Part shown: piece by piece, positions 4,678-64,000 of the stretch
Layout of the letters: each line of letters opens with the position of its first letter
Position numbering within the stretch: position 1 is the first letter of the stretch
Assembly (NCBI GenBank): GCA_030390025.1
Contig: CM059432.1
Coordinates: 97,590,001-97,654,000, forward strand
Origin: Squalus acanthias
Lineage: Eukaryota
Reading direction: 5' to 3'
Length of the DNA stretch: 64,000 nucleotides
Notes under the pieces: generated by a model
What the model was told of the DNA's origin: nothing
The model's database searches: none
Seen by the model: only the letters and a program-made list of their open reading frames with translations
Made by a program: the position numbers and the translations under genes

Positions 4678-5191
4678 GGCCTAGAAATTGGTTCACACCT
4701 GCTGAGCAGGGGCCACCAACGACCTTCAGTACTCCCGGGGCAATGGCCTCCTGCCACTCTCTGGGTACAGCACTGCCCATCGCTGCTCGACAGCGCCAAT
4801 CAGAGCCACTAAGGCCTGGTCACTAAAGCGCTGAGCTCTCTCCCTGGGCCTATCCATCACTCCTCTCACAGTGGTGGTAGGTCTTTCCAGCACCAGAGTC
4901 AATGCTACAATGAGCAGGGTGTGGCTGGCTAGCAAGATGGACCCTCCCCTTTAAGAACTGGCCGGCGCCAGTCTGGGTTCCATTGCTAACTGACATCACC
5001 TGAGCTTCAGGAGTGTTCTGGGGTAGCGCCTCGCTCCTCAATGTTAGCGCCTTAAGAGAGGTGTGTAGTGCTTGATTTAGCACTCAAATCACCTCCAGGG
5101 GCGATAGAGGCGATAATTAGCGCCGGGCGCTAAACTTTGTGCCCGGCCGATATTAGCGCCCCAAAATGGGCAATACCGAATTTTTCCCCCC
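4678..5191 (-). mobile_element. Harbinger left-end remnant with start of the Myb/SANT gene
   Basis: Minus peptide RERAQRFSDQALVALIGAVE..YPESGRRPLPRE is homologous to the gene at 44601. Terminal sequence resembles 44244-44600. Confidence 0.8.
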
Positions 5192-6237: not shown

Positions 6238-7080
6238 GGGCTGGATTTTACCAGCCCTGAGGAGGTGGGTTTGGAGGCGGGACTGCTGGGAAAATCAAAA
6301 AAAATGGGTGCAGGTCCCAAACCCGCTCCCAACCCGCCTCCAACCAATCTTCGCAGGAGTCAAGTCCCCGATTTGGGCAGGGACCCGACTCCTAGCGGCG
6401 GGAAGAGGATTATAGCCATTTAACAGCTTGTTAACAGGTAGTTAACAGGCAGTTAAGAGGCTTTTTCCCATTTTGCGACTTCTGCTGCGGGCTTCCCGAT
6501 GTCGGGGAACCCCGCCAGGGTAAGTGAGGCGTGTTGTAATGTTTGTGTATAGATGACAGCTACAGAAGTGGTGTGAAGGATGCAATGGGACACTGGTGAG
6601 TATCAGAGGTAAGGAAATGTTGGGAAATTCATTTTTAATGTGTATAGATTTTTCTGTAGGTGACAAGCTTTGAAGTGTTTGTGTGGCCTCACCTCATTGG
6701 GAGAAGTGACAGATCGCTTCTGTACCCTCATCTGTTTTATACTGTGGAGGGAGTCATTGGAGAGTCTAGGTGCAAGGGCTCACCTTTGTACAGTGATTGT
6801 CAGTGTTTGACAGCACCTCAATGCTGTCAAACACTGTCAAATCATCTGTCAGAAATAGATGGGTCATGTCCCTTTAAGAAAACCGGCAGATGAAGCGTCA
6901 TCAACTGACATCATCTGACACCGGCTTTCCCTTAATTGGCCGGCAAGCCCGCAGGGCAGGCTTAACAAGGCCAATCAGGGAAAAATAGCGTCTGTACGTC
7001 GGATGTCGCTGGGGGCGGGACTAGAACCCGGAAGGCAGCAGTTCCGCCCCCAACTCGTCTCGGTAAGTAAAGTCCAGCCC
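6238..7080. mobile_element. Harbinger-type MITE
   Basis: TIRs GGGCTGGATTTT / AAAGTCCAGCCC, 3-bp TSD ATC on both sides. Confidence 0.85.
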
Positions 7081-9449: not shown

Positions 9450-10981
9450 ATGGAGTTGGGAGGAGCATTCCGAAGAGTGTGGCGGGAGGTGGCTCAGCAC
9501 GTCTCCTCAAGGAGCCTGGTGCCGAGGAGTCACACTCAGTGTAGGAAGAAGTTCAACGATCTCACTTGGGTCGTAAGGGTGAGTGGATGCTTTTCAATAC
9601 CTCCACATCCCTCCATCTCAACTTCACTCTGTGGCCAGAGGGTTTAAAATCCCACATGCACAGCACTCATCCAAGACCTATGGCCATCTCATAAAAGACA
9701 CATGCACAATCCACACCTTGCATACATTAAGGGCTATTCAACTCTGGGAGGCACATCAGGCAAGCACATGGCTGCATACATTAAGGGCTATTCAACTATG
9801 GGAGGCACATCAGGCAAGCACATGGCTGCATACATTAAGGGCTATTCAACTATGGGAGGCACATCAGGCAAGCACATGGCTGCATACATTAAGGGCTATT
9901 CAACTACGGGAGGCACATCAGGCAAGCACTCACTTAGATGCTGTCCTTTTTCTTACAGGCCAAGCTCTCTCATAACAGGCGGGAGCAGCAACGCACGGGA
10001 GGAGGACTGGCTGACCTACACCCCCTAACCGATTTGGAGGTGAGAGTGCACAGGATCATTGCCAGCCAGGTCATAGGTGCCGTGGCCGCTGGAGAGGGCA
10101 GTTGTCACAATGGACAGCGAACTGGGAGATATTCGTGATGTCCCCAGTAGAAGCTTGAAAGGAGCCGCTGGCATAAAAATTCAGAGCCACTGTCACCTTC
10201 ACTGCCACCGGCGGAGATGTCCTGGTCCTGAGTTGAGGCTGCAGATCTGGTTGCAGCAGGTGGCAGAGCTCAGTGACCACCTCCTTGCTGAAGCTCAGCC
10301 TGCGGAAAAACTGCTCCTCAGACAAATGAAGGTATGAGAACTGCTCCCTGTATACCCTCGGAGGGTAAGGTCTCCTGTGCGGAGGCCTGTTGGCCCTCCT
10401 CCCTCTGGCCATATTTGCCTCTCTCTCTCTGCGCCTCTGCTGCCTCCGATTCTGCAGGTGCAGGACTACGCCCTGAGTCAGTGCAGCTCCCATAGTCTCT
10501 TCTAAATTGTTGGAATGAAGGTGAAATAAAAATGAACCTCCAAAGTGCTGCTCAGGACCCAAAACTTCTTCGCACAGCGTTGAATCTCTCCAGACGTCTC
10601 TCTCCCTCTCAACCTGCGTGGTACAAAAATTTAGCCGACAAGAAAAGGCAGGAAGCTGCCGCCTTTAAATAGCGCTCCCCCAGCCCCGTCCCGACTGGAA
10701 AACGTTCCCCTCTACCTTTCGTTCCTAGCGGCAGGCGGAAAGGCAGGGGGTGAAACTCAATATCCGGTCTGGGGCATTACCGGGGCGTTGCATGCTTGAC
10801 TGACGTCACGATCTGCGGGCGCAGGACATCATGGCGGTAGTGTTTAGCGCTGTCGCAAAACATCTGGTCAATTTTGCGAGTGGAACTAAACTCGCCACGC
10901 TCAGGCACTAAGTTCTTAGCGCCCCATTACCGCCCCCCGGAGGCGTTAACGGGAGGCGATAACCAACCAAATATTTCCCCC
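9450..10981. mobile_element. Internally deleted Harbinger: Myb exons 1-2 (+) joined to the 5' part of the transposase (-) and the right end
   Basis: QCRKKFNDL motif (9450-9647) and exon 2 AKLSHNRREQQRTGGG. Minus ORF 10071-10562 has YPPRVYREQFSYL..ALNFYASGSFQ. Colinear with 44244-48727. Confidence 0.9.
9719..9930 (+). repeat. 54-bp minisatellite, ~4 copies, in Myb intron 1
   Basis: Repeated unit TGCATACATTAAGGGCTATTCAACTATGGGAGGCACATCAGGCAAGCACATGGC. Confidence 0.95.
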
Positions 10982-33702: not shown

Positions 33703-34431
33703 ATTAAAAAAATATGTAATGCTGGGAAAGGTGGGACCATAGGTTTATTGTATTTGAGGGGGAACACATACACTTTTTTTTTAAGAGGAAAGCAGTGTAA
33801 TGTATTATCACGTGGTTTGGTATTTGCATGCTCAGTTCACTCTGGCCTAATAAACAAGCACATGGATTAGCAACTCATCGTGACTCTGTCCTTCATTTGT
33901 TCTACCCAGGTATATTATAGTGATCAACTTATCTGACTGCAGTACCAGTAAACGCAACCCCAATTCCAAATTCACCAATAATCCCACACCTTACCTTCCC
34001 TCTATTACTGACAATCAGAGCATCCTCTTGGCCACAATGCTGAAATAAAAGCCACCACAAAATAAAGATTCCAAAAAAATGCCATGAATCAAACCATTAC
34101 AATATTTCATTCAAAAGTCAACTAATCATGCTGGTGCATTCCCTTAGTGCTTGTCTTCAGTCTGCCTTTTCTATACAGTGCTAACCCAGTGGCTGCAGCA
34201 CGACTGATGGAAGGCTGCTTACTTTCAGTGGGGGAGATTGCAGATGGCCTTGCAGGGTGACCACGAAACTCTAGGCCTAGAAAGCACGGCTGTAGACTGC
34301 AAAACCTCGGCATGGGCGGCAGCAGTCTCAGCTGGTTGGCTGTCAGGCAAGGGCACTGGTGGATTGGCAGTGGTGTGAGGACGAACGCTATCATCCTGAG
34401 AGAGGACAGCAGGTTCATCCTCCACGGAGCC

Positions 34432-37745: not shown

Positions 37746-38507
37746 CAATGCCACTTTCCCGGGGCGGCGCCTCAGCAATCCTAGTAATCTGCTGGAGGAT
37801 AGATTGCTGGACTGGTATGACACTCTGCAAGCCCCTTTCAACACTGGTAAGCGCAGCCATGATGGCAGCAGTCTGTGCTTGCATGACAGCAAGCTGAGCT
37901 TGCATGACTTCATTTTGAGCTTCCATTGTGGCACTCAGACATTGGGTGGCTTCTGCTTGTGCAGTGTGTGAGGCTAGTGGTGCCGTTTGTGGCATATGCC
38001 ATTTGAAGATTAATTCACTGGCCTTGGCCACTCGTGTGAGGTCATTAAACTTCTTCCTGCAAAGCATCCAGGTCCTCGGGGCTACACTGCTTGCTTTCTG
38101 CACCCATTCCCTTCTCAGTGTCTGTCTGGAGGGCCTCCTGGTCCCTTGTGGATACAGGACATCTCTCCTGCCGTCCACCTCCTGCACCAGGGCCTCGAGT
38201 GCTGCATCTGAAAATCTGGGAGCCCTCTCTCTGCCAGGTCTGCACAGAGCAGGATTAAAATGGAGTGCACTTAAACAGAGTGTTTTATTTGGGAATTTGG
38301 AAAGAGTGGGAATAGGAGAAGAGAAGGAAGGAGTTGTTGCTTATTGCCTACACTACTTGTAGTGCTTTGTGTTACAGGTAGATATTTAACTTCAGCACCC
38401 ATAACTTATTCTAGATTAAGTAAATAGTTAAGAAACTACACTGTAAACTAAGTTACCTAATTATAAATTTAATTAAATTTAATTAAACAAAACAAGGTCA
38501 TATAGGG

Positions 38508-42433: not shown

Positions 42434-44600
42434 GGTAGAAGATCAGCCATGATCTTATTGAATGGCCTACTCCTGCTCCTATTTCTTACGTTCTTACGTT
42501 CTTATGTTGCGCCATCTTCACTCTTCCTGTAGGTCACACACACCTCTGCAATGACTTCCAGTACCTGCTGCAGCCAGAATGCACCTCCCCTTGAAGAGGT
42601 GCAGCCTGGCTTTATGAAGTGCAGACTCGCTTTAATTGGTGCTAGCCTCGCATGAACTTGGGCCCCCTGCTGAACGTGCAGCCACTCAGCAGCCCACTTA
42701 GTGCTGGGCTGCATGCCAAAATCATTATAATTAGCAGGCAGCATTAAGTTTGTGTGCTGCCTGCATTACTTTGAATGGGCGGGGGTTAATCGTGCATCGC
42801 AATCCCTGCGCCTGTTTTCGGGGGCAATCCAATTTTTAGCCCTGTTTGTCATTGGGATAACAGTTTTAATATTTTTAACATGACATTCATAGCAATTGTT
42901 ATTTGGATGTCATACTGATTTCAAGTTATATAAATGTCAAAATCACCTCCTTGTAGCATGACAGACAACAATTACACTGCAGCAATTTGATCTATTATCG
43001 CCATGTTTAAAGTGCAATAATCAGCATGTACCTTCAGAACATCCGCCTTTCAATTCTGCTTGTATTTTTCACCTAGATTTTGCTCAGCTTGAGAGTTTAT
43101 GAATTTACAAGTAATACTAATAACTCTTTGTGATTGTAAGAAGATGCAACTGAACTGTAAAGGTTCTTGCATGTTAAAGTGAGCGATAATACATTTAATT
43201 CACATTCCCAAACCAGGTCCAGCAATGAATGGATAAATGGTAAAATTCTCTCTACATTGCCCTAACAGTGCTTAATGCCAACAACCTTAGAAAGTGCCCT
43301 TTACTGCACTCTTGTGACATTTATATTCCACACACCAGCTGTCCTAATGGCCTCTGGGTAACACTGTCACTTTAGTGCCTATTAATGTACAATTAGGTTT
43401 TATGCTGTGGACTCATACCCATTAGTAACTAGTTTGACAATACTCATTTCAAATAGAACTACTGGCAGAGAAAGGAGTCTTGCCGCATCAGTCAGGCTGA
43501 AACTTGAACTCAGGCCTAGAAATTATTATTTTTTTAATTCATTCATGGAATGTGGACGTCAATGGCATTGTGCCCGTTTTTCAGGTGCAAAATGGACGTC
43601 TAAGTATCCACTATGACGGGTGGGTCATAGAATCATAAAATCATAGAATAGTACAGCACAGAAGGAGGCCATTCAGCCCATCAAGTCTGCTCCGGCTCTT
43701 TCAAAGAACAATCCAGTTAGTTCCACTCCCCTGCTCTTTCCCCATATCCCTGTAATTTTTTTCTCCTTCAAGTATTTATCTAATTCCCATTTGAAGGCTG
43801 CTATTGAATCTGTATCCACCACCCTATCAGACAGTGCATTCCAAATCCTAACCACTCGTTGCATAAGAAAGTTTTTCCTCATGTTGCCTCTGGTTCTTTT
43901 GCCAATCACCTTGAATCTGTGCCATCTGGTTATTGACCTTTCAGCCATTGGAAACAGTTTCTCTTTATTTACTCTATCTGAACCCTTCATGAGTTTAATT
44001 CCTCTATCAAATCTCCTCTTAGTCTTCTCTGCTCCAAGGAGAACAACCCCAGCTTTTCCAGTCTATCCACATAACTGTAATCCCTCATCCCTGGAACCAT
44101 TCTAGTAAATCTCTTCTGTACCCTCTCCAAAGCCTTCACGTCCTTCCTAAAGTGTGGTGCCCAGATTGGACACAATACTCCAGATGGGGCCGAACCAGTG
44201 TTTTATAAAGGTTCATCATAACTTCCTTGCTTTTGTACTCTATGGGGTAGAAATTAGGTCGCGCCCCATTTGGGGCGCAAATATCGTCCGCGCGCAAATA
44301 TTAGCGCCTGGCGCTAATTATCGGCACTGACAGGAAACTTCACTTTTACCGCCCCGGGAGGTGAGTGGAGCGCTAAATTAGGCGCTGCACACCTCTCTTA
44401 AGGCGCAAAGGCCTAGGAGTGAGGCGCTAACTCAGCGCACGAGCGCAGCGCAGCTGCTGCCAGTTAGCGAGGGAACACAGACACACTGGCGCCGGACACT
44501 TCTTAAAGCGGGGGGGGCCACTTGCTCCCCAGCCACACCCTGCTCATTGCAGCCTTGAATCTCAGCCTGGAGAGACCTGTAATCCATTTTGCTGCCAAGC

Positions 44601-46760
44601 ATGGAGAGGGTGAGAGAACGCGCTCATCGCTTCACCGAGCGGGCCTTGGATGCTCTGGTTGACGCAGTGGAGCGCAGACGATGCATGCTGTTCCCAGAGA
44701 GTGGCAGGAGGCCTTTGCCACGCGAGTTCAGAAGAGTGTGGAGGGAGGTGGCTCAGAGCGTCTCCTCCAGGAGCATGGTGCCCAGGACCCATGTCCAGTG
44801 CCGCAAAAAGTTCAACGACCTCACTCGGGTCGTCAGGGTGAGTGGCTTTTTCTCAATACCTCTCCATCCCTCCATCTCAACCTCACTCTATGGCCAGAGG
44901 GTCTGAAAACCCCAATGCACAACACTCATCCAACACCTATGGCCCTTTCATCAAACACACACACACATTCCACACTTTGCATACAGTAAGGGCTATTCAC
45001 CTATGGGAGGCACATCAGGCAAGACCATGGCTGCATACAGTAAGGGCTATTCACCTATGGGAGGCACATCAGGCAAGACCATGGCTGCATACAGTAAGGG
45101 CTATTCACCTATGGGAGGCACATCAGGCAAGACCATGGCTGCATACAGTAAGGGCTATTCACCTATGGGAGGCACATCAGGCAAGACCATGGCTGCATAT
45201 TGTAAGGGCTATTCACCTATGGGAGGCACATCAGGCAAGACCATGGCTGTATATTGACTCAGATGCTGTCCTTTTTCTTGCAGGCTAAGCTGGCTCATAA
45301 TCGGAGACAGCAGCAACGGACGGGTGGAGGGCGGCTTCAGCTGCAACCCCTCAGCGATCTGGAGGAGCGCGTCCACAGGATTGTGGCAAGCCGGGTGATC
45401 GGTCCCGTCGCCACTGGAGACGCCGACTCCGTTGTGGACAGCAATGGTAAGGTCATCACCTTTTTGTCCTCTGTCCTTCCACTTGTCCCTCACAATACCA
45501 GCCTTTGACACTTTCAATCCAACTTGCTAACTCGCTGCACTTATTCCTCCCTTACTGCCACCCTGTCCTCACGCTAAAGCCACTCTTGTACCTCCCTGCT
45601 TTCAGATGGTGATTCACCAGCTGAGGAGATGGTCCCTGAAGCTGCCACTGGGAGTGATGCTGCAGCTGAGGAGGAAGAGGAAGCCGGAGCATCAGTGCCA
45701 CCCTCTCCCGAGGAAGCCCATGGCCACACTGGGAACACGCCTTCCCCGGAGGGGAGCAGGGGGGAAGGGGCTGATGATGGTGAAGTTCCAGGACCCAGCG
45801 GGCTGCAGCAACGCCATGGGGGGGGGGAGGGAAGAACGGGGGAGCAGGGGGGAAGGGGCTGATGATGGTGAAGTTCCAGGACCCAGCGGGCTGCAGCAAC
45901 GCCATGGGGGGGGGAGGGAAGAACGGGGGAGCAGGGGGGAAGGGGCTGATGATGGTGAAGTTCCAGGACCCAGCGGGCTGCAGCAACGCCATGGGGGGGG
46001 GAGGGAAGAACGGGAGCCTTCTCCCCAGAGGGAGAGTATGCCAGACACTCCTAATGCAATGGACGCAGAGGAGGAGCGGATGATTGCAGAAATGAACAGC
46101 CAGGCGGTGGTCATGCACACTGAGCTCATGGGTGCAGTGGGAAGGGTGCCCGAATGCATTGAGGCACTGGCAAGGAGTGTGGAGCACTTCGCTGTAGCAC
46201 AGGCGGATGCCATACTAAAGCTTACTGCTGCAATTCAGTCACTGGCTGCCAGGAACCCATCTGAGCCTGCTCTCATGCAGACTCAGATTGAGGCCACGCG
46301 AGCACTGACTGCTGCCATCCTCGATGGTTCGTGCACATGTCCCCGGGGCTGTCACCGCGCCGCAGCAGGCCAGCAATCTGTTCTCAGGCAAATTGCTCCG
46401 GATGCTGAAGTGCTGCCCCGTGGGAGTGCCAGTGTGTCGGGCGAGCAGGGAGTTGCTGTCCTCTCTCACGATGACAGCATTCCTGCTGCCAACACTGTCA
46501 CTTCTCCACTGCACTTGCCACCGCCTGTAGGACAGACTGCTGCCGCCCATGCAGAGTTGGTGCAGTCTGCAGCCGGGCCCTCCAGGCCCAGAAGTGGTCG
46601 AGGCCGTCCTTCAGGGGCATCTGCAGTGTCAGGGTCTGACAAGCAGCAGCCTTCCACCAGCCTTGCTGCAGCCACTGAGGTCCCATTACGGAGGAGCAGT
46701 AGGGTTAGAAGGGGGGAAGTGCGCAAGGGAAGGAGATCACCCTCGAAGGGCAAAAAGTAG
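44601..46760 (+). CDS. Harbinger Myb/SANT-like DNA-binding protein, 3 exons (44601-44837, 45284-45446, 45606-46760), +1 G in a homopolymer at ~45818-45827
   Basis: RF....L..LV..V, W..VA and QCRKKFNDL trihelix motifs. GT-AG introns with compatible phases (0 and 1). Basic C-terminus resembling an NLS. Confidence 0.85.
44978..45250 (+). repeat. 54-bp minisatellite, 5 copies, in Myb intron 1
   Basis: Unit TGCATACAGTAAGGGCTATTCACCTATGGGAGGCACATCAGGCAAGACCATGGC. Confidence 0.95.
45751..46017 (+). repeat. 87-bp coding tandem repeat, 3 copies (29 aa)
   Basis: GSRGEGADDGEVPGPSGLQQRHGGGREER repeated; G runs of 10, 9 and 9. Confidence 0.95.
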
Positions 46761-47054
46761 GAGGTGTGCCAAAATGCTGGTCATTTTTTTATTAAAGGCC
46801 GAGGTTCATGGCCCAACTTTTGTTTAGTGTTTTGGACATTATCTCCAGGTTGTGAGAACCAGTTATGTTATTGACTGTTTTTTTGTGTTTATTTCTATGA
46901 GTTTGTCATGAGGAATTGACACACACAGAGTTTGTACAATAAATAAGTTTCTGTATTCAAAATATACATGGCTGGTGGTTGGAATTATTGGTGCCTTGGC
47001 CGGCTTAGGGGTTGCGTGCTGGGTTGATTCGTGTTTGTAGCACTGGCAGGGGCC

Positions 47055-48215
47055 CTAGAAGCGGCTTGCTATTAGTCGTTGACGGACGGCCCTTGCAGTT
47101 TGACCATTGTGGGCCGCCCTCCTGCCTTGGTGCTGCTGCTGATCATCGTCCTCGGCCTGTTCCTCCTCTTCCTCCTCCTCCTCTTGTGGTGCTGCAAGGC
47201 CTGGTGGCATTGGCTGCGTCCTGAGGATTGCCATGTTGTGCAACATGCAGCACACCACTACGAATTTGGAAACTTGCTCAGGCGAGTACTGCAGGGCTCC
47301 TCCGGAATGGTCCAGACAGCGGAATCGTTGTTTGAGCACGCCGATTGTGCGCTCAATAATGTTCCTCGTTGCTTGTTGGCTTTCCTGGTACCGCAGCTCA
47401 GCAGGGGTGTTTGGCGCACGGAGCGGTGTCATCAGCCAGGTGCTCAATGCGTACCCCTTGTCCCCCAGAAGCCAACCAACTGGCTGATGCGGTGCCTCGA
47501 AAATTTCTGCCACAGTACTCTGGCGCAGGATGAAAGCATCGTGGCAGCTGCCCGGATAGTGGGCATTGACAGCGAGAATCACCTGTCTGTGGTCACAGAC
47601 CAACTGCACATTCAAGGAATGGAACCCCTTTCTGTTCCGGAACTCCTCTGCATTCTCTCGCGGAGCACGCAAAGCCACATGCGTGCAGTCAATGGCGCCC
47701 TGCACCATGGGGAAGCCCGCTACCCTCGCAAAGCCCATAGCACGGTCATGCTGCTTGTCTGGGGTCATAGGGAAGGAGATGAAGTCTCGTCTCCTTGTGA
47801 AGAGGGCATTGGTGACCTGCCGGATGCAGCGATGCACCGCAAACTGGGAGATATTGGCGAGGTCCCCAACAGCAGCTTGGAATGAGCCAGTGGCGTAGAA
47901 GTTCAAGGCCACTGTGACCTTCACTGCCACCGACAGAGACGTCCTGGACCTCAGCTGAGGCTGCAGATCTGGCTGCAGCAGGTGGCAGAGCTCAGTGACC
48001 ACCTCCTTGCTGAATCGCAGCCTTCGCAAACACAGCTCCTCGGACATGTGGATGTAGGAGAACTGTTCACGATATACCCTGGGAGGGTAAGCTCTCCTGT
48101 ACATGCGCCTGATGGGCCTCCTCCGTCTGGCCATCATTGCCACTCTCTGTCTGCGTCTCACTCTGCTCCGATTGAGCTGGAGCAGGACGACGCCCCCAAT
48201 CATTGCAGCCCCCAT
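47055..48215 (-). CDS. Harbinger DDE transposase (HARBI1-like), 386 aa, uninterrupted
   Basis: [57 protein letters not shown], acidic tail. Confidence 0.95.
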   Translation of the reverse strand: MGAAMIGGVVLLQLNRSRVRRRQRVAMMARRRRPIRRMYRRAYPPRVYREQFSYIHMSEELCLRRLRFSKEVVTELCHLLQPDLQPQLRSRTSLSVAVKVTVALNFYATGSFQAAVGDLANISQFAVHRCIRQVTNALFTRRRDFISFPMTPDKQHDRAMGFARVAGFPMVQGAIDCTHVALRAPRENAEEFRNRKGFHSLNVQLVCDHRQVILAVNAHYPGSCHDAFILRQSTVAEIFEAPHQPVGWLLGDKGYALSTWLMTPLRAPNTPAELRYQESQQATRNIIERTIGVLKQRFRCLDHSGGALQYSPEQVSKFVVVCCMLHNMAILRTQPMPPGLAAPQEEEEEEEEQAEDDDQQQHQGRRAAHNGQTARAVRQRLIASRF

Positions 48216-50129
48216 CTTCTCTTTGCCAGAAAAGTAATGAGGTACAGCAACGAAAGTAGCAGCAAAGTTAGGATGAACTAGGCAAAACTACCTCACAAAG
48301 CGTTGAGTCAATGTAGAAGTCTCTCTCTCTCTCTCTCCGAATCTCTCTCTCTCTCTCAGAACGAGTGGTGCATAAATGTCGACCACAGAAAAAGACAGGA
48401 AGAGGCCCCCTTTAAATAGCGCCCCCCCCAGCCCCAGACCGATTGATAACGTTCCAGTCTTCCGGTCGTTGGAAGCGCCAGGCGGTAAGGCAGGGGGCGC
48501 CACTCAATTTCCGCTCCGGGGCGCCCCAAGGGCGTTGCACCACGGACTGACGTCACAATCTGCGTGCGCAGGTGGTCGCAGCGGTAAGTTTTAGCGCCGC
48601 CGCACAATCTCAAGTTAAGTTCTCGAGCGGCGCAAACAGCGCTGCGCCCGGGCGTTAGCGCCTTAACGCCCCATTAGCGCCCATTTAAGGCGCTAACGGG
48701 AGGCGCAACCAACTGAATTTTTACCCCTATGCCTCTATTTATAAAGCCCATGATCCCATATGCTTTATTAACTGCTTTGTTAACCTGTCCTTCAACCCTC
48801 AAAGATTTGTGCGCAAACACCCCCAGGTCTCTCTGTTATGGCACCCCTTTTAAAATTGTACCATTTAGTTTGTATTCTTCCTACCAAATGCATCACCTTA
48901 CACTTTTCATCATCCATGTGTCCGCCCATTCTCCTAGCCTGTTTATGTCCTTTTGAAGTCTATTGCTATGTTCCTCACTGTTTACTACACTTCCAAGTTT
49001 TGTATCATCTGCAAATTTTGAAATTGTGCCCTGTACCCCTAAGTTCAAGTCATTAATGTATATCAAAAACAGCAGTGGTCCTAGTACTGAACCCTGGAGA
49101 GCACCACTGTATACCTCCTTCCAGTCCAAAAAACAGCCATTCGCCACAACTCTCTGTTTTCCATCCCTTAGCCAATTTTGTATTCATGCTACTACATGCC
49201 CCCTTTATCCCATGGGCTTTAATTTTGCTAACAAGCCTAATATGTGCTACTTTATCAAACGCCTTTTGAAAGTCCATATACACAAAATCAACTACACTGC
49301 CCTCATTCACCCTCTCTGTTATCTCATTAAAAAACACAATTAAATTAGTCAATCACGATTTGCCCTTAACAATTCTGTGCTGGCTCTCCTTTATTAGTTC
49401 ATGCTTGTCCAAGTGGCTGTTGATTTTTTCCAGGATTATTGTTTCTAAAAGCTTCCCCACTACTGACATTAAAGTGACTAGCCTATGATCTCCAGGTTTA
49501 TCCTTCTCCCCTTTTTTGAACAAGGGTGTAACATTTGCAATCCTTCAGTCCTCTGGCGCCATCCCTGTATCTAAGAAGGATTGGAAAATTATGGCCAGCA
49601 CCTCCATAATTTCTACCCTTACTTCCGTCAGCAACCTAGGATGCATCCCTTCTGGAAGAGGTGACTTATCTACTTTAAGTAGTGCCACCCTTTCTAGTAC
49701 CTCCATGCACGCTCATTACGCGCTGGAGGTGCGCTGCCTGGCATCCTGGATTGGGCTCCTCCCTTGGTGTCCTTGGCGCATACCAGAACTATTTAAATTG
49801 CTGACTAAAATATGTCACTTAGGGTCCTATCTTGTTGTGGGATTCTTTTGTGATATTGGGCTGCCCCAGCGCCTAACTCCCAATGTGATAAACTCACCTA
49901 GAAACTCGTAGTGTTAACAGATAGGAAGGATCCTTCAGCAGCGCTATTTAAAGGGCTCAGCCATTACATACAGGTTAGTTGCTGGTTTGACATTTGAGGA
50001 TGCTGGATAACTTCTGGTCACTTTTTGGCCTGTTTTCTGACTTAGAGAACTGATTTCTGACTGCTGATAAAAAGTTCTTGCTGGTGCTGGATTGGTTTTG
50101 GCTGATTTCTGAACAGTTTTGCTGCAGCC

Positions 50130-50600
50130 ATGAGTGGTCTGATAGGGCTGCCTTTGGGGGTGGAGGAAGAGGGGGAGCAGAATGGAAGACAAGAGAGAGT
50201 AGGAGCAGCTTGCAGAAGATGGAGGATCAGGACACTGCACAAGAAACTTCAGGGAGCACTTTTCCTACATGAACTTCTCAGAGGAGTAACGTCTCAAGTG
50301 CCTTTGCTTCGTTGTCACCGATCTATGCCAGCTGCTGCAGCCACAACTTGAGGCTCATACCAGGGCATGGACAACACTGCCTGTGGCTGTCAAAGTCAGT
50401 GTGGCCCTTAACCATTATGCCACGGGCTTCTTCCAGGCCGCAGCAGGTGACATAGGCGACATTTCCCAGTTTACACTGCACCGTTGTATCAGGGAGGTCA
50501 CCAAGGCTCTCTACATTATGAGGAACATCTACATCGCTTTTGCCATGGACATAGTGAAGCAGGACTACAGCTTGGTAGGTGGAAGGCTGCTGAGCTTCCA
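50130..50600 (+). pseudogene. Decayed Harbinger transposase 5' fragment
   Basis: AVKVSVALNHYATGFFQAAAGDIGDISQFTLHRCIREVTKAL. Confidence 0.8.
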
Positions 50601-52615: not shown

Positions 52616-54518
52616 ATGACTGCTTCAAGAGCCAAGGCATCTCCAAGATTCAATGATGACTCCCTCCATGCTATTGTGGAGGGAGTGAGAGGGCGCAAAG
52701 AGGTTCTGCTTCCCTCAAATGGACGGAGGAAGCCTCCTCAGCAAACCAAAGCAGCCTAACTGCAAATTGCTGAGGAGGTGAGCGCCAGGTCTTTGTGTGG
52801 TCGCACCTGGGTTCAGTGCCGCAAAAGGTTCAATGATCTGCTACGCTCAACAAAAGTGAGTATAACATCACACTTACCTTCAATCTGCTCCCCATCTCCT
52901 CTCATCACCAGCACTCTGCATTGTCAACCTACTCCTGCACATCCCAATTTACCCTTACATTCCTTGCACCCTTACCATCCCCCCCTCACTATGTACAGAA
53001 TCACTTCACACTTCTCCTATGCAGCCCTCACACTCGCTATCACTGTTATGCAATGACAACAGCTAACAATGCACAGGGAGGGTCCTTGGTATCGGCACCA
53101 AACTCCGTCTTTGACTCCCTCTAAGCATCTATGCTATGGATTCTCTACACTCACTCCAACATTCTCACTCAAACTCCACTTGTGTCCCTCATTGCAGGAA
53201 AGGAGAGCCCACAATAAGAGGGAGAGGGGGAGGACAGGAGGAGGGCCACCTTCCATGGCGCACTTGACCACCGCTGAGGAGGCTGCTATCGACATGGTCG
53301 GAGGTGCTGAGGAGCTGGAAGTGGGGGACGGAGAGACGGGTGCAGTAGAGCAAACTGGTGACAGAATAGATTTGCAACCCTCTCATTTAGATTGCATGAG
53401 TGACTGATATGGCATCTGATGTTCATATAGATTGAGTTCTGATCATCTGCACAATTGGATGTGTCTGCTACGTTAATATCACATGTCTAACTCATGCCTT
53501 TACTCCCCCACAGGACCATCGAGAGCCCCCTTCCCCACTGTCCAGGAGGAAGAGCTGGAAGACTCCTCAGAGGAAGCTGCTATCTCTGAGGGTGCAGTGT
53601 CAGCAGAATTGAGCGCACCCAGCACCAGCGCAGAGACGCAAACCTCGGTGGGTCATTCGCGAGATGGATTAGTGTTGTCACCTGGTGTATCGCAGCTCAC
53701 AAGTGAGCATCAGCAGATGGTGGAGACAGGGACAGCAGTGGAGAGTCCTCATTGGAGGCCGCAGGGCGCTCCTAGCTCTGCTCAGCTGCATGTAGTCCCT
53801 GTGCCTCTGGGGCCATCCAGAAAGAGAGCAGTGCTGGAACTTCAGGAACAAGTGCAGGAGTCTCTGACAGGGTTTGCAACCACGGTAACTGCGAGTGTGC
53901 AGAGAATGGAGGAGTCCATCTCAAACATGAGCAATGCCGTGGTGCACTCAATGGCGAATGTAGGTGCCGCCATGGAAAAGATGGCAACCTCCATGAAGGA
54001 TATAAATCGGCATATGCAAATGAACATGGTGACTCTTCTAAATAGATAGTCTGCTATGGAGGATAGATGGGCAGCTATTGAGGAGAGACACCAGAGGTAC
54101 ATGGACGTACCTGTTATGAGGACTGTCAGTGTAGAGACGGGTTCTCATGGCGCCACTGACGTGCAGCAAGGTGCACTCCAGCTACTTGCTAGCAGTGAAG
54201 TGCGGGTGACCCTCGAGAGGGATGTTGGTGGTTGACAACAAGGAAGTGTGGGCTCCTCTCCAAGCGCTCACACTCCCATGCCACTGCGGAGCCCTCGGTC
54301 AGAGCCCCAGATTCCTCACCCAACTGAGATGGCTGTCTCAGCCCTTGCACAGCCACAGGAGGAGCAGACTGTTGCCGAGCCCTCCCTGGCTCCCAAACCC
54401 TGAGGACGCCCGCCAAAGGTGTCGAAGCAGGCGCAGCATGAAAGTGAGCAAGGTGCCTCAACATCTGCTGAAGCCACAGGGGAAGTACCACGTAGAAGCA
54501 CGCGTAAGAGAAAGTTAA
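52616..54518 (+). pseudogene. Myb/SANT-like gene (exons ~52616-52855, ~53198-53357, ~53514-54518) with stops
   Basis: PRFNDDSL..V, QCRKRFNDL, AHNKRERGRTGGG. In-frame stops at 52757 and 54047. Confidence 0.8.
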
Positions 54519-54815
54519 CACACAAATAGTCACAAGGGTAGTCACTTGGGTGTTTTGATCTAATATAAAGTGAAGATTGTCATCATTATTTCAATTGTAA
54601 GAAAGAAATGCGATGGCAAAGATTCAAAGAGTTGGCCTATGTGTGCCCAGAAATGGAAGTATCACAGTGAGGGGTCAGGGCGCCTTTCATCTGTAATGAT
54701 GGTGGTGAGAGTGATAGGAACCCACAGTTTATTGTACAGATGCTGTATGGTGTATTAAGAAGGTTGGCCAGACACTCATTTTCATGTGGCAGCCACATGT
54801 GTTTGCTTCTAAAGC

Positions 54816-55960
54816 TTACGCGAATCTGGCATGGAGTAGTACATCCCTTGCCTCATGGCCAGCAATGTGCTCACGTGCTGGTGGAACTGGCACATGCGCT
54901 TCCAGAAGGTTTTCCTCCTCCTCTGTGCACTGAGCCACTTGTTCCTCAGGCAGTGGTAAGCCACGCTGCTGTGCGATGTTGTGCAGTGCACAGCAGACCA
55001 CGATGATTCTGGAGACCCTGGCTGGGCTGGTGAGTACTGTAGGGCTCCAACAGATCTGCCGAGGCATCTGAATCGCCTTTTGAGCAAGCCGATGGTTTGC
55101 TCTATGATGCTTCTGGTGGAAATGTGGTTCACATTGTAGCGCTCCTCAGCTTCGTTTGATGGCCTCCTCATCGGTGTCATTAGCCATGTCTTCAGGGGAT
55201 AGCCCTTGTCTCCAAGTAGCCATCCAGAATGTTGAGTTGGCGGATTAAACAGCTGAGGCACAGTAGACTGCCGCAGGATGAACGAGTCATGGCAACTGCC
55301 AGGGAACTTGGCGCAAACATGCATAATGTTCTTCCTGTGGTTGCATACCAGCTGGACGTTAAGGGAGTGGAAGCCCTTGTGGTTGACAAATACAGCTGGG
55401 TCGTGATGTGGTGCCCTAATGGCCACATGTGTGCAGTCTACGACACCCTGCACCCTTGGCAAGCCTGCCATATTAGCAAAGCCAACCGCACGCGCGGTTA
55501 CACTTGCTTCATCCGTGGAGAAGTGGATGTAATTGTGCGACTTTGCAAAGAGGGCATCGCTAACCTGCGTGATGTCTGCTGCTGATCCCTGGAAGGACCC
55601 TGAAGCAAAAATGTTGAATGCGGTGGTGATTTTGACAGCCACTGGTAAGGAGTGTCCACCCGCTCCTCTGGGCTCCAGGTGTTGGTGCAGCATTGTGCAG
55701 ATGTCAGTGACTACCTCTCGCAAAAGTCTCAGCCTCCTTTGGCACTGCTGCTCAGTCATGTTGAGGAAGCTTATCCTCGGCCTGTAAACCCTGTGTTGGG
55801 GGTATCTCCTGCGGCGAGGTGCAGCCCTGCGCTGATGCCCTCTGCCCTGTGCAGCATCAGGTGGCTGAGGAGAAGGTTGGCGCTCCTATTGTTGGTGCTG
55901 CTGGTGTGCTTGGTTCTGCTGCTGCCACGGCTGCTCTTCCTCTGACTCTGAGGACCAGGA
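54816..55960 (-). pseudogene. Harbinger transposase with a small deletion and frameshifts
   Basis: [33 protein letters not shown] falls in another frame. Confidence 0.9.
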
Positions 55961-63190: not shown

Positions 63191-64000
63191 GGGCTGGATT
63201 TTGTCAGCCCAGAGGAGGCGGGCATGGAGGCGGGACTGCCGGTAAAGTTGCAGAGAGTGGGGGCGGATGGCAAACCCGCCCCATCCCGCCTCTGTGCCCT
63301 TTTGCCAGGAGGCGGGAAGCCATCCTGCCCCGGGTCCCATCTCCTCGAGGCGGGAAAGGGATTAAATCCTTTTAACTGCCTGTTAACAGGTAGTTAACAG
63401 GCAGAAAAAAGGATTAGTCCCATTTTACCTTTTCAAGTGCAGGCTTCCCGACATCTGAGAACCCCGCCGGGGTGGAGGAGTCGAGTAGGAGGTCTGCGGG
63501 GGTCGGAGAGGTCTGAAAGTGCAATGTAGAGGTGACTGATGGGTGCAAGTGTGGAGTGGTAAGTATGTAAGGTGATTGTAAAGTGTTATAAAATGTTCAT
63601 TTACCTTTGTTTCTGCCTACAGCCTTCAGCCACGGTGGTTCCGGAGTCCCGACATCTTCATTGTAGATTTCACAGACTGGCTGTTGGATCCTCCAAACCA
63701 ACACTCATCTGATTTCTACAAACTAGAAAGGATTGATGAGTCCTGAACACAAGGGATCATCAAACTACACAAAAAGTCAGTGTTTGACAGCTTCACAGAG
63801 CTGTCAAACGCTGACATTTCTTCTTTCAAGAAGTCTTGACAGATGGCACATCAGACGTTGATGTGCTCTCTAGTGACTTCCCCCTAATTGACCTGCTGAG
63901 CCCGCAGGACAGGCTTAACAAGGTCAATCAGGGGAAAATCCCGCTGGTTAGCCAGAGGCTGATGGAGGCGGGACTGAGACCCATTCACAAAATCCAGCCC
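63191..64000. mobile_element. Harbinger-type MITE inserted in a CR1 fragment
   Basis: GGGCTGGATTTTGT / ACAAAATCCAGCCC TIRs. The right flank lies outside the window. Confidence 0.85.

Follow-up and report, generated by a model that had tools for sequence, protein, structure and literature searches.

Within the 64,000 nucleotides of Squalus acanthias DNA analysed here, in the following called the window, a transposable element interrupts a decayed copy of CR1 (Table 1). It contains a DDE_Tnp_4/HARBI1-type transposase gene and, in convergent orientation, a separate gene for a Myb/SANT-like protein, is bordered by terminal inverted repeats (TIRs) and a target-site duplication (TSD) of 3 bp, and lies at a site with an extended target preference. 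On every testable feature it is thus a two-gene PIF/Harbinger element.

Table 1. Features of the element and of its insertion site (positions in the window)
Feature	Position	Strand	Remarks
PIF/Harbinger element, 4,484 bp	44244-48727		Two-gene type, full length
TSD, left copy, TAT	44241..44243	+	Inside CR1 ORF2
Left TIR, 12 nt, GGGGTAGAAATT	44244..44255	+	
Left subterminal region, 6 RGCGCWAA copies (either strand)	44274..44430	.	Candidate Myb-binding sites, putative function
Myb-like exon 1, 237 nt, Myb/SANT-like domain	44601..44837	+	PF13873, E=1.3e-9; 60% identical to P0122 residues 65-137
Intron 1, GT-AG, phase 0	44838..45283	+	Holds 54-bp tandem repeat, 5.1 copies, 44978-45253
Myb-like exon 2, 163 nt	45284..45446	+	58% identical to P0122 residues 140-177
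Intron 2, GT-AG, phase 1	45447..45605	+	Splicing predicted from homology
Myb-like exon 3, 1155 nt	45606..46760	+	Assembled frame stops at 45860-45862; homologous frame continues to 46760
In-frame coding tandem repeat, 3 x 87 bp	45751..46014	+	Single unit in homologues
G10 run in first 87-bp unit, +1 frameshift	45818..45827	+	
DDE transposase ORF, intronless, 386 aa, no stop	47055..48215	-	DDE_Tnp_4
Right subterminal region, 5 RGCGCWAA copies	48591..48696	.	
Right TIR, 12 nt, GGGGTAAAAATT (reverse strand)	48716..48727	-	
TSD, right copy, TAT	48728..48730	+	

An earlier, sequence-only reading of this DNA had claimed two TIRs, a clean TAT duplication in a CR1 and CpG-rich ends, and all three were confirmed. 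The TIRs differ from each other at a single position and are shorter than the 25–50 bp described as usual for PIF/Harbinger elements (PMC9179366). Four further CR1 copies of the window run through this site with just one trinucleotide, and one of the four is identical across the junction. Removal of the element together with one TAT in silico leaves the CR1 reverse-transcriptase frame open across the junction; the TSD is therefore exact. In the two outermost bins of 250 bp, the observed/expected ratio of CpG reached 1.03 and 1.24, versus 0.10–0.43 in the flanks; this richness of the ends is partly due to the repeated motif RGCGCWAA. This motif occurs 11 times in the two terminal 300-bp stretches and not once in the interior, compared to 0.28 terminal copies expected, and none of 2000 simulations reached 11. 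RGCGCWAA may be likened to the subterminal motif of Harbinger3_DR, which is 9 bp long (PMC9710019), and on this analogy is a natural candidate for the binding site of the Myb protein. The insertion site spells A-N-N-Y-(3 bp)-R-N-N-T, as at other Harbinger-like ends in the window. A-N-N-Y precedes the triplet at 7 of 10 TIR-like ends, both ends of the element included, against a background of 0.13, in a comparison for which the pattern was picked after the ends had been seen and to which two insertions each contributed a pair of ends.

The transposase matches PF13359 (DDE_Tnp_4) with an E value of 5e-38, and its residues D176, D226, D252 and E288 lie in conserved columns of an alignment with 120 homologues, in agreement with the uninterrupted 386-aa frame with D-D-E motifs that had been claimed before. 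Among 3026 candidates, 372 homologues with up to 66% identity were found, and sharks and rays were the source of the majority of the 120 homologues listed. The transposase departs from the consensus at only 2 of 90 well-conserved columns, which places it among the best 5 of 121 sequences, whereas the median deviation among 71 near-complete homologues was 10 columns. Judged by these comparisons, the transposase looks intact. Its structure was predicted with a pLDDT of 88.6; a sequence search of the PDB gave no true match and two chance hits, and a Foldseek search with the model gave no match at E<=0.001 and weak matches to DDE transposases and integrases. A complex prediction for transposase residues 30–340 with the distal helices of the Myb protein yielded a score of 0.01 and a mark of 0.34. 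Just before the catalytic glutamate, the nearly invariant asparagine and histidine are replaced by glutamine (Q277 and Q280, codons at 47376–47387 on the minus strand); the homologues contain N in 104 and H in 96 of 120 sequences, respectively, and Q277 in none of the 120. A similar pattern is found in Pong-type transposases. A contig from the sequencing run X6 is identical to the window over both codons, which indicates a trait of the lineage instead of private damage to this copy. Q277 could nevertheless impair catalysis in the whole lineage, and this counts against the explanation of the copy that we favour below.

The three-exon model of the Myb-like gene holds when it is compared to predicted proteins of other sharks. 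P0122, a gene model from a sawshark, matches exon 1, exon 2 and the parts of exon 3 before and after the G run in colinear order (E values of 9e-29, 3e-13, 1e-8 and 8e-41, respectively). Together with the domain match to PF13873, this bears out the previously proposed convergent gene with three exons and phase-compatible GT-AG introns. At the codon position of intron 1, a GT donor is also present in two relics of the window (near 9580 and near 52856). With the distal part of exon 3 as query, 11 matches were obtained, among them P0122 and P0132, both with an N-terminal Myb domain, and exon 1 alone retrieved one longer protein among 158 candidates. The alternative frame before the G run found a match in none of six homologues tested.

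The assembled exons add up to 1555 nt (3n+1), and the fault can be located in the first of the three 87-bp units, which contains a run of ten G in place of the nine G in units two and three (45906 and 45993). As assembled, the Myb protein would end after 218 aa instead of 517 aa, losing about 300 residues with the conserved C-terminal part and keeping the DNA-binding domain. Beyond the G run, 310 open codons lead up to the stop at 46760, the end point that the earlier reading had given for a spliced frame with nine G. The colinearity of P0122 with all exons and with the frame beyond the run makes G10 a real frameshift in the sequence as assembled. Rescue of the frame by cryptic donors in the 87-bp units (45780, 45868 and 45955) is unlikely, as these sites are weak and lack a pyrimidine tract. 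An autonomous element has two uninterrupted frames, and the assembled copy has one; it is probably non-autonomous and mobilizable in trans, unless G10 is an error of the assembly. G10 had been called the only visible lesion. The run itself is there as described, and the transposase is unusual at Q277 and Q280 as well, albeit as a trait of the lineage. We consider it fairly probable that this account applies as a whole: a young, full-length copy of the autonomous type, the Myb gene of which was cut short by the change from G9 to G10, and which may still be moved with Myb protein from a sister copy.

In Harbinger elements, both proteins are required, the Myb protein binding the ends and importing the transposase, and excision is usually precise, as described in PMC2836001 and PMC9710019; the earlier statement on the need for both proteins agrees with these descriptions. 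Taking Harbinger3_DR and Ping/Pong as a guide, the Myb protein of the shark element would bind the repeated subterminal RGCGCWAA sites and serve both to import the transposase into the nucleus and to place it on the ends, whereupon the transposase would excise the element precisely and reinsert it with a 3-bp duplication. Slippage from G9 to G10 in the recently triplicated 87-bp unit would have reduced the length of the Myb protein from 517 aa to 218 aa. The copy could then still be moved and might even donate transposase, with the Myb protein having to come from a sister copy. Supply of the two proteins in trans has been proposed for an active nematode Harbinger (10.64898/2026.05.26.728016).

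All or part of the element was found in 20 of the 24 sequencing runs listed, the 20 being from ten studies, and at least half of its sampled words were present in 16 runs under six organism labels, which may not all denote species. The element was compared with the contigs of four of the 24 runs (X1, X6, X17 and X19). In X6, with 184 contigs, five aligned pieces differ from the window at 9 of 3,434 bases, corresponding to 99.7% identity; the piece spanning a microsatellite upstream of the transposase gene contains four gap letters at places not displayed. For the X6 contigs of the Myb gene no gap is listed, and several of the nine substitutions were not displayed, so that a stop may be among them. 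Three left ends in X6 have other flanks and no contig extends beyond the ends of the stretch, indicating that X6 represents a sister sequence at other sites. X17 likewise shows other flanks. In X1, 6,858 of 33,212 aligned contigs are at least 99% identical to the element. At 47265, 47518 and 48116, X1 and X19 carry other, nearly fixed alleles, with which X17 is in agreement; these three runs thus contain a sister lineage and not the copy in the window. The family is multicopy and has very close relatives. Joints in X1, X17 and X19 that skip the whole element were considered as signs of excision or polymorphism and are interpreted as CR1 paralogues that lack the insertion. A horizontal transfer between the six coded organism labels was considered as well and need not be invoked, as slow vertical descent suffices.

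The differences between these relatives and the window copy can be assessed on a biased subset, 40 of the 189 listed. None of the 33 coding differences in this subset creates a stop. In exon 1 and the transposase gene, 10 of 18 are synonymous, compared to 23% expected (p=0.003 in this biased subset), and in exon 3 of the same subset 3 of 15 are synonymous, with no enrichment and no signal of selection on the tail. Among the differences listed, the only indel at a G run is a frame-keeping deletion of 3 nt in X17 and X19.

G10 has been read in one assembly, and long runs of G are prone to error. If G10 were a homopolymer error, the copy would be a fully intact autonomous element. In favour of such an error, no other change breaks the frame in about 2.7 kb of coding sequence, no homopolymer of the element is longer than this run, and the 87-bp units are otherwise 100% identical. 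In the X6 bin 45724–45878, a depth of 5.0 was expected and 5 was observed, and a contig ending at 45780 accounts for this depth, so that no contig specific for G10 was aligned from X6. However, contigs drop variants, and the depth ratio of the collapsed repeat in X6, which favours three 87-bp units over two, does not discriminate between the cases, being 1.57 where 1.50 is predicted for G9 in all units and 1.62 for one unit with G10. G and C runs of differing length are also a natural feature of the family (+GG at 44509, +C at 48421, –3 at 45993), and near-private changes elsewhere in the window copy (44905 and 46213) indicate that it has accumulated private mutations. We regard an assembly error as rather unlikely. 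That the truncated protein of 218 aa is enough and the copy autonomous despite G10 appears very improbable to us, even though this form retains the Myb domain and the conserved segment of exon 2, its premature stop falls in the last exon, and the reconstructed zebrafish Myb partner is reportedly of about the same size. In shark homologues the distal part is retained as far as the basic tail at the C-terminus, and in other lineages the indel at a G run keeps the frame. In Arabidopsis, the C-terminal part of the Myb protein of the HDP1/HDP2 pair was found to be needed for interaction (PMC5339849). The interaction region of HDP2 (residues 151–259) is unmappable onto the Myb protein of the element, which counts against our favoured account, and the 218 aa may still include a portion of the corresponding region. 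Domestication of the pair as host genes of the HARBI1/NAIF1 type is hardly credible. The best database matches are indeed named 'putative nuclease HARBI1', but the element has TIRs and a TSD where a domesticated pair would have neither, it interrupts a CR1, its sequence occurs with other flanks in X6 and X17 instead of at a single orthologous locus, and the window contains related relics as well.

Whether the truncated but movable copy that we favour belongs to a family that still transposes is a separate matter. The window copy had been suggested to be active or one base away from it; one base from intact is correct at the level of the sequence, and the near-identity of copies is no proof of activity, given the slow shark clock. 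At the mutation rate of the epaulette shark, 7e-10 per base per generation (PMC10587355), the divergence of 0.26% (9/3,434) translates into 1.9–3.7 million generations, and over the interval published for this rate into 0.9–19 million generations. The family may accordingly have ceased to move long ago, its fresh look being due to slow mutation in sharks, and we give somewhat less than even weight to this reading, which is compatible with our account of the copy. It draws on the millions of generations implied by the nine differences and on the near-identical sequence under six organism labels, as expected if the element is older than their split. On the other hand, the 1.9–3.7 million generations date the ancestor shared by two copies rather than the last jump, the rate was taken from one other species, and the coded labels perhaps do not all stand for species. 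The undepleted CpGs at the ends, the identity of the 87-bp units apart from G10 and the large share of X1 contigs above the 99% threshold also fit less well with a long standstill. Transposition of the family in the present shark germ line, from natural intact copies such as the window copy if G10 is an error or a sister of the X6 type, seems doubtful. If it did occur, an unreconstructed pair of vertebrate Harbinger proteins, with its target motif defined and its catalytic helix of the non-canonical Q..Q type, would be expected to work in a cell assay.

As to transcripts, none of the runs listed is recorded as RNA. No GT-AG splice joint was found among 15 of the 89 joints listed, in contigs from runs of which two are only guessed to be RNA. 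These two runs cover the introns and ends as well as the exons and may contain DNA. Record 10 of X17 crosses donor 1 unspliced. The start of record 18 of X19 at 45605 was considered as evidence of splicing and set aside, because any variant at 45604 would produce the same start.

The element can be likened by description to Harbinger3_DR and Harbinger3N_DR from zebrafish, which share with it a gene for a DDE transposase and another for a Myb-like protein, short TIRs, a repeated subterminal motif, a 3-bp TSD and an extended target preference. Harbinger3_DR is a reconstructed consensus that was shown to transpose (Sinzelle et al., 2008, as reported in PMC8151067, PMC2836001 and PMC9710019), and the mention of this reconstruction in the earlier reading agrees with the accounts in PMC8151067 and PMC2836001. 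In contrast, the shark element is a single natural copy with the motif RGCGCWAA, known from its sequence alone. Natural vertebrate Harbinger elements with intact two-gene copies are represented by Harbinger-Snek of sea kraits, for which PMC8437027 reports 269 fully intact copies in Laticauda colubrina, and one intact copy in L. laticaudata, both genes of which are covered by RNA reads. Harbinger-Snek is described as horizontally acquired and as making up 8–12% of the genome, whereas the closest proteins to those of the shark element come from other sharks and rays. By description, the coelacanth Harbinger, which has been reported to be still accumulating (Smith et al., 2012, according to PMC5381603 and PMC9179366), is similar as a young-looking element in the slowly evolving genome of a fish. 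The nearest known proteins, P0001–P0003 and P0122 from Pristiophorus japonicus, are annotated as 'putative nuclease HARBI1' or 'uncharacterized protein'; the transposases are 63–66% identical and the Myb protein is colinear over its length. The shark element differs from them by Q277/Q280 in place of N/H, by the triplication of the 87-bp unit and by a Myb tail whose central helical region is shorter, and judged by these differences appears to represent a distinct family.

In the literature searched, shark Harbingers are mentioned in repeat tables at superfamily level only (PMC8455134 and PMC12498223). A survey from 2022 recorded no Harbinger in the elephant shark and called for the study of other cartilaginous fish (PMC9179366). 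The main text of PMC4255032 and the Squalomix preprint make no mention of Harbinger, the accessible part of PMC9392472 has nothing on shark Harbingers, and no description of a shark Harbinger at the level of the element was found in the literature searched, which comprised neither supplements, subscription papers nor Repbase/Dfam. The family is apparently undescribed. Its novelty is weaker than first claimed, because Harbinger-Snek's 269 intact copies have already been reported, and its significance is limited by the natural intact vertebrate Harbingers known before and by the conjectural nature of any present activity. The near-intact copy offers a ready gene model, ends and a candidate binding motif for an assay with the two proteins.

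Further Harbinger-like sequences are scattered over the window. A related element with internal deletions occupies 4724–5190 (minus) and 9468–10981 (plus) and is 73–92% identical to the full-length element, depending on the region. An inversion of about 4.7 kb seemingly broke it in two within Myb exon 1; its outer ends have a matching GAG triplet, and the overlap between the two pieces is about 8 nt. Within this element, the 54-bp tandem repeat of the intron recurs at 9719–9929. It is the region in which both elements are most alike, with 92% identity compared to 76–84% for exon 1, the 5' part of the intron and the transposase gene, which suggests homogenization or exchange of the repeat. A different Harbinger-like element with GGGCTGGATTTTG ends covers 810 bp at 63191–64000, its right flank lying beyond the window, and is inserted in another CR1 copy at the CR1 position homologous to the insertion of the full-length element. 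Degraded relics with pieces of the Myb and transposase genes are located at 34187–34411, 37753–38232, 50254–50598 and 52646–55777, the last of which retains both genes in convergent orientation, and more Harbinger-like ends are present at 6238, 8335, 11923, 23710 and 42842.
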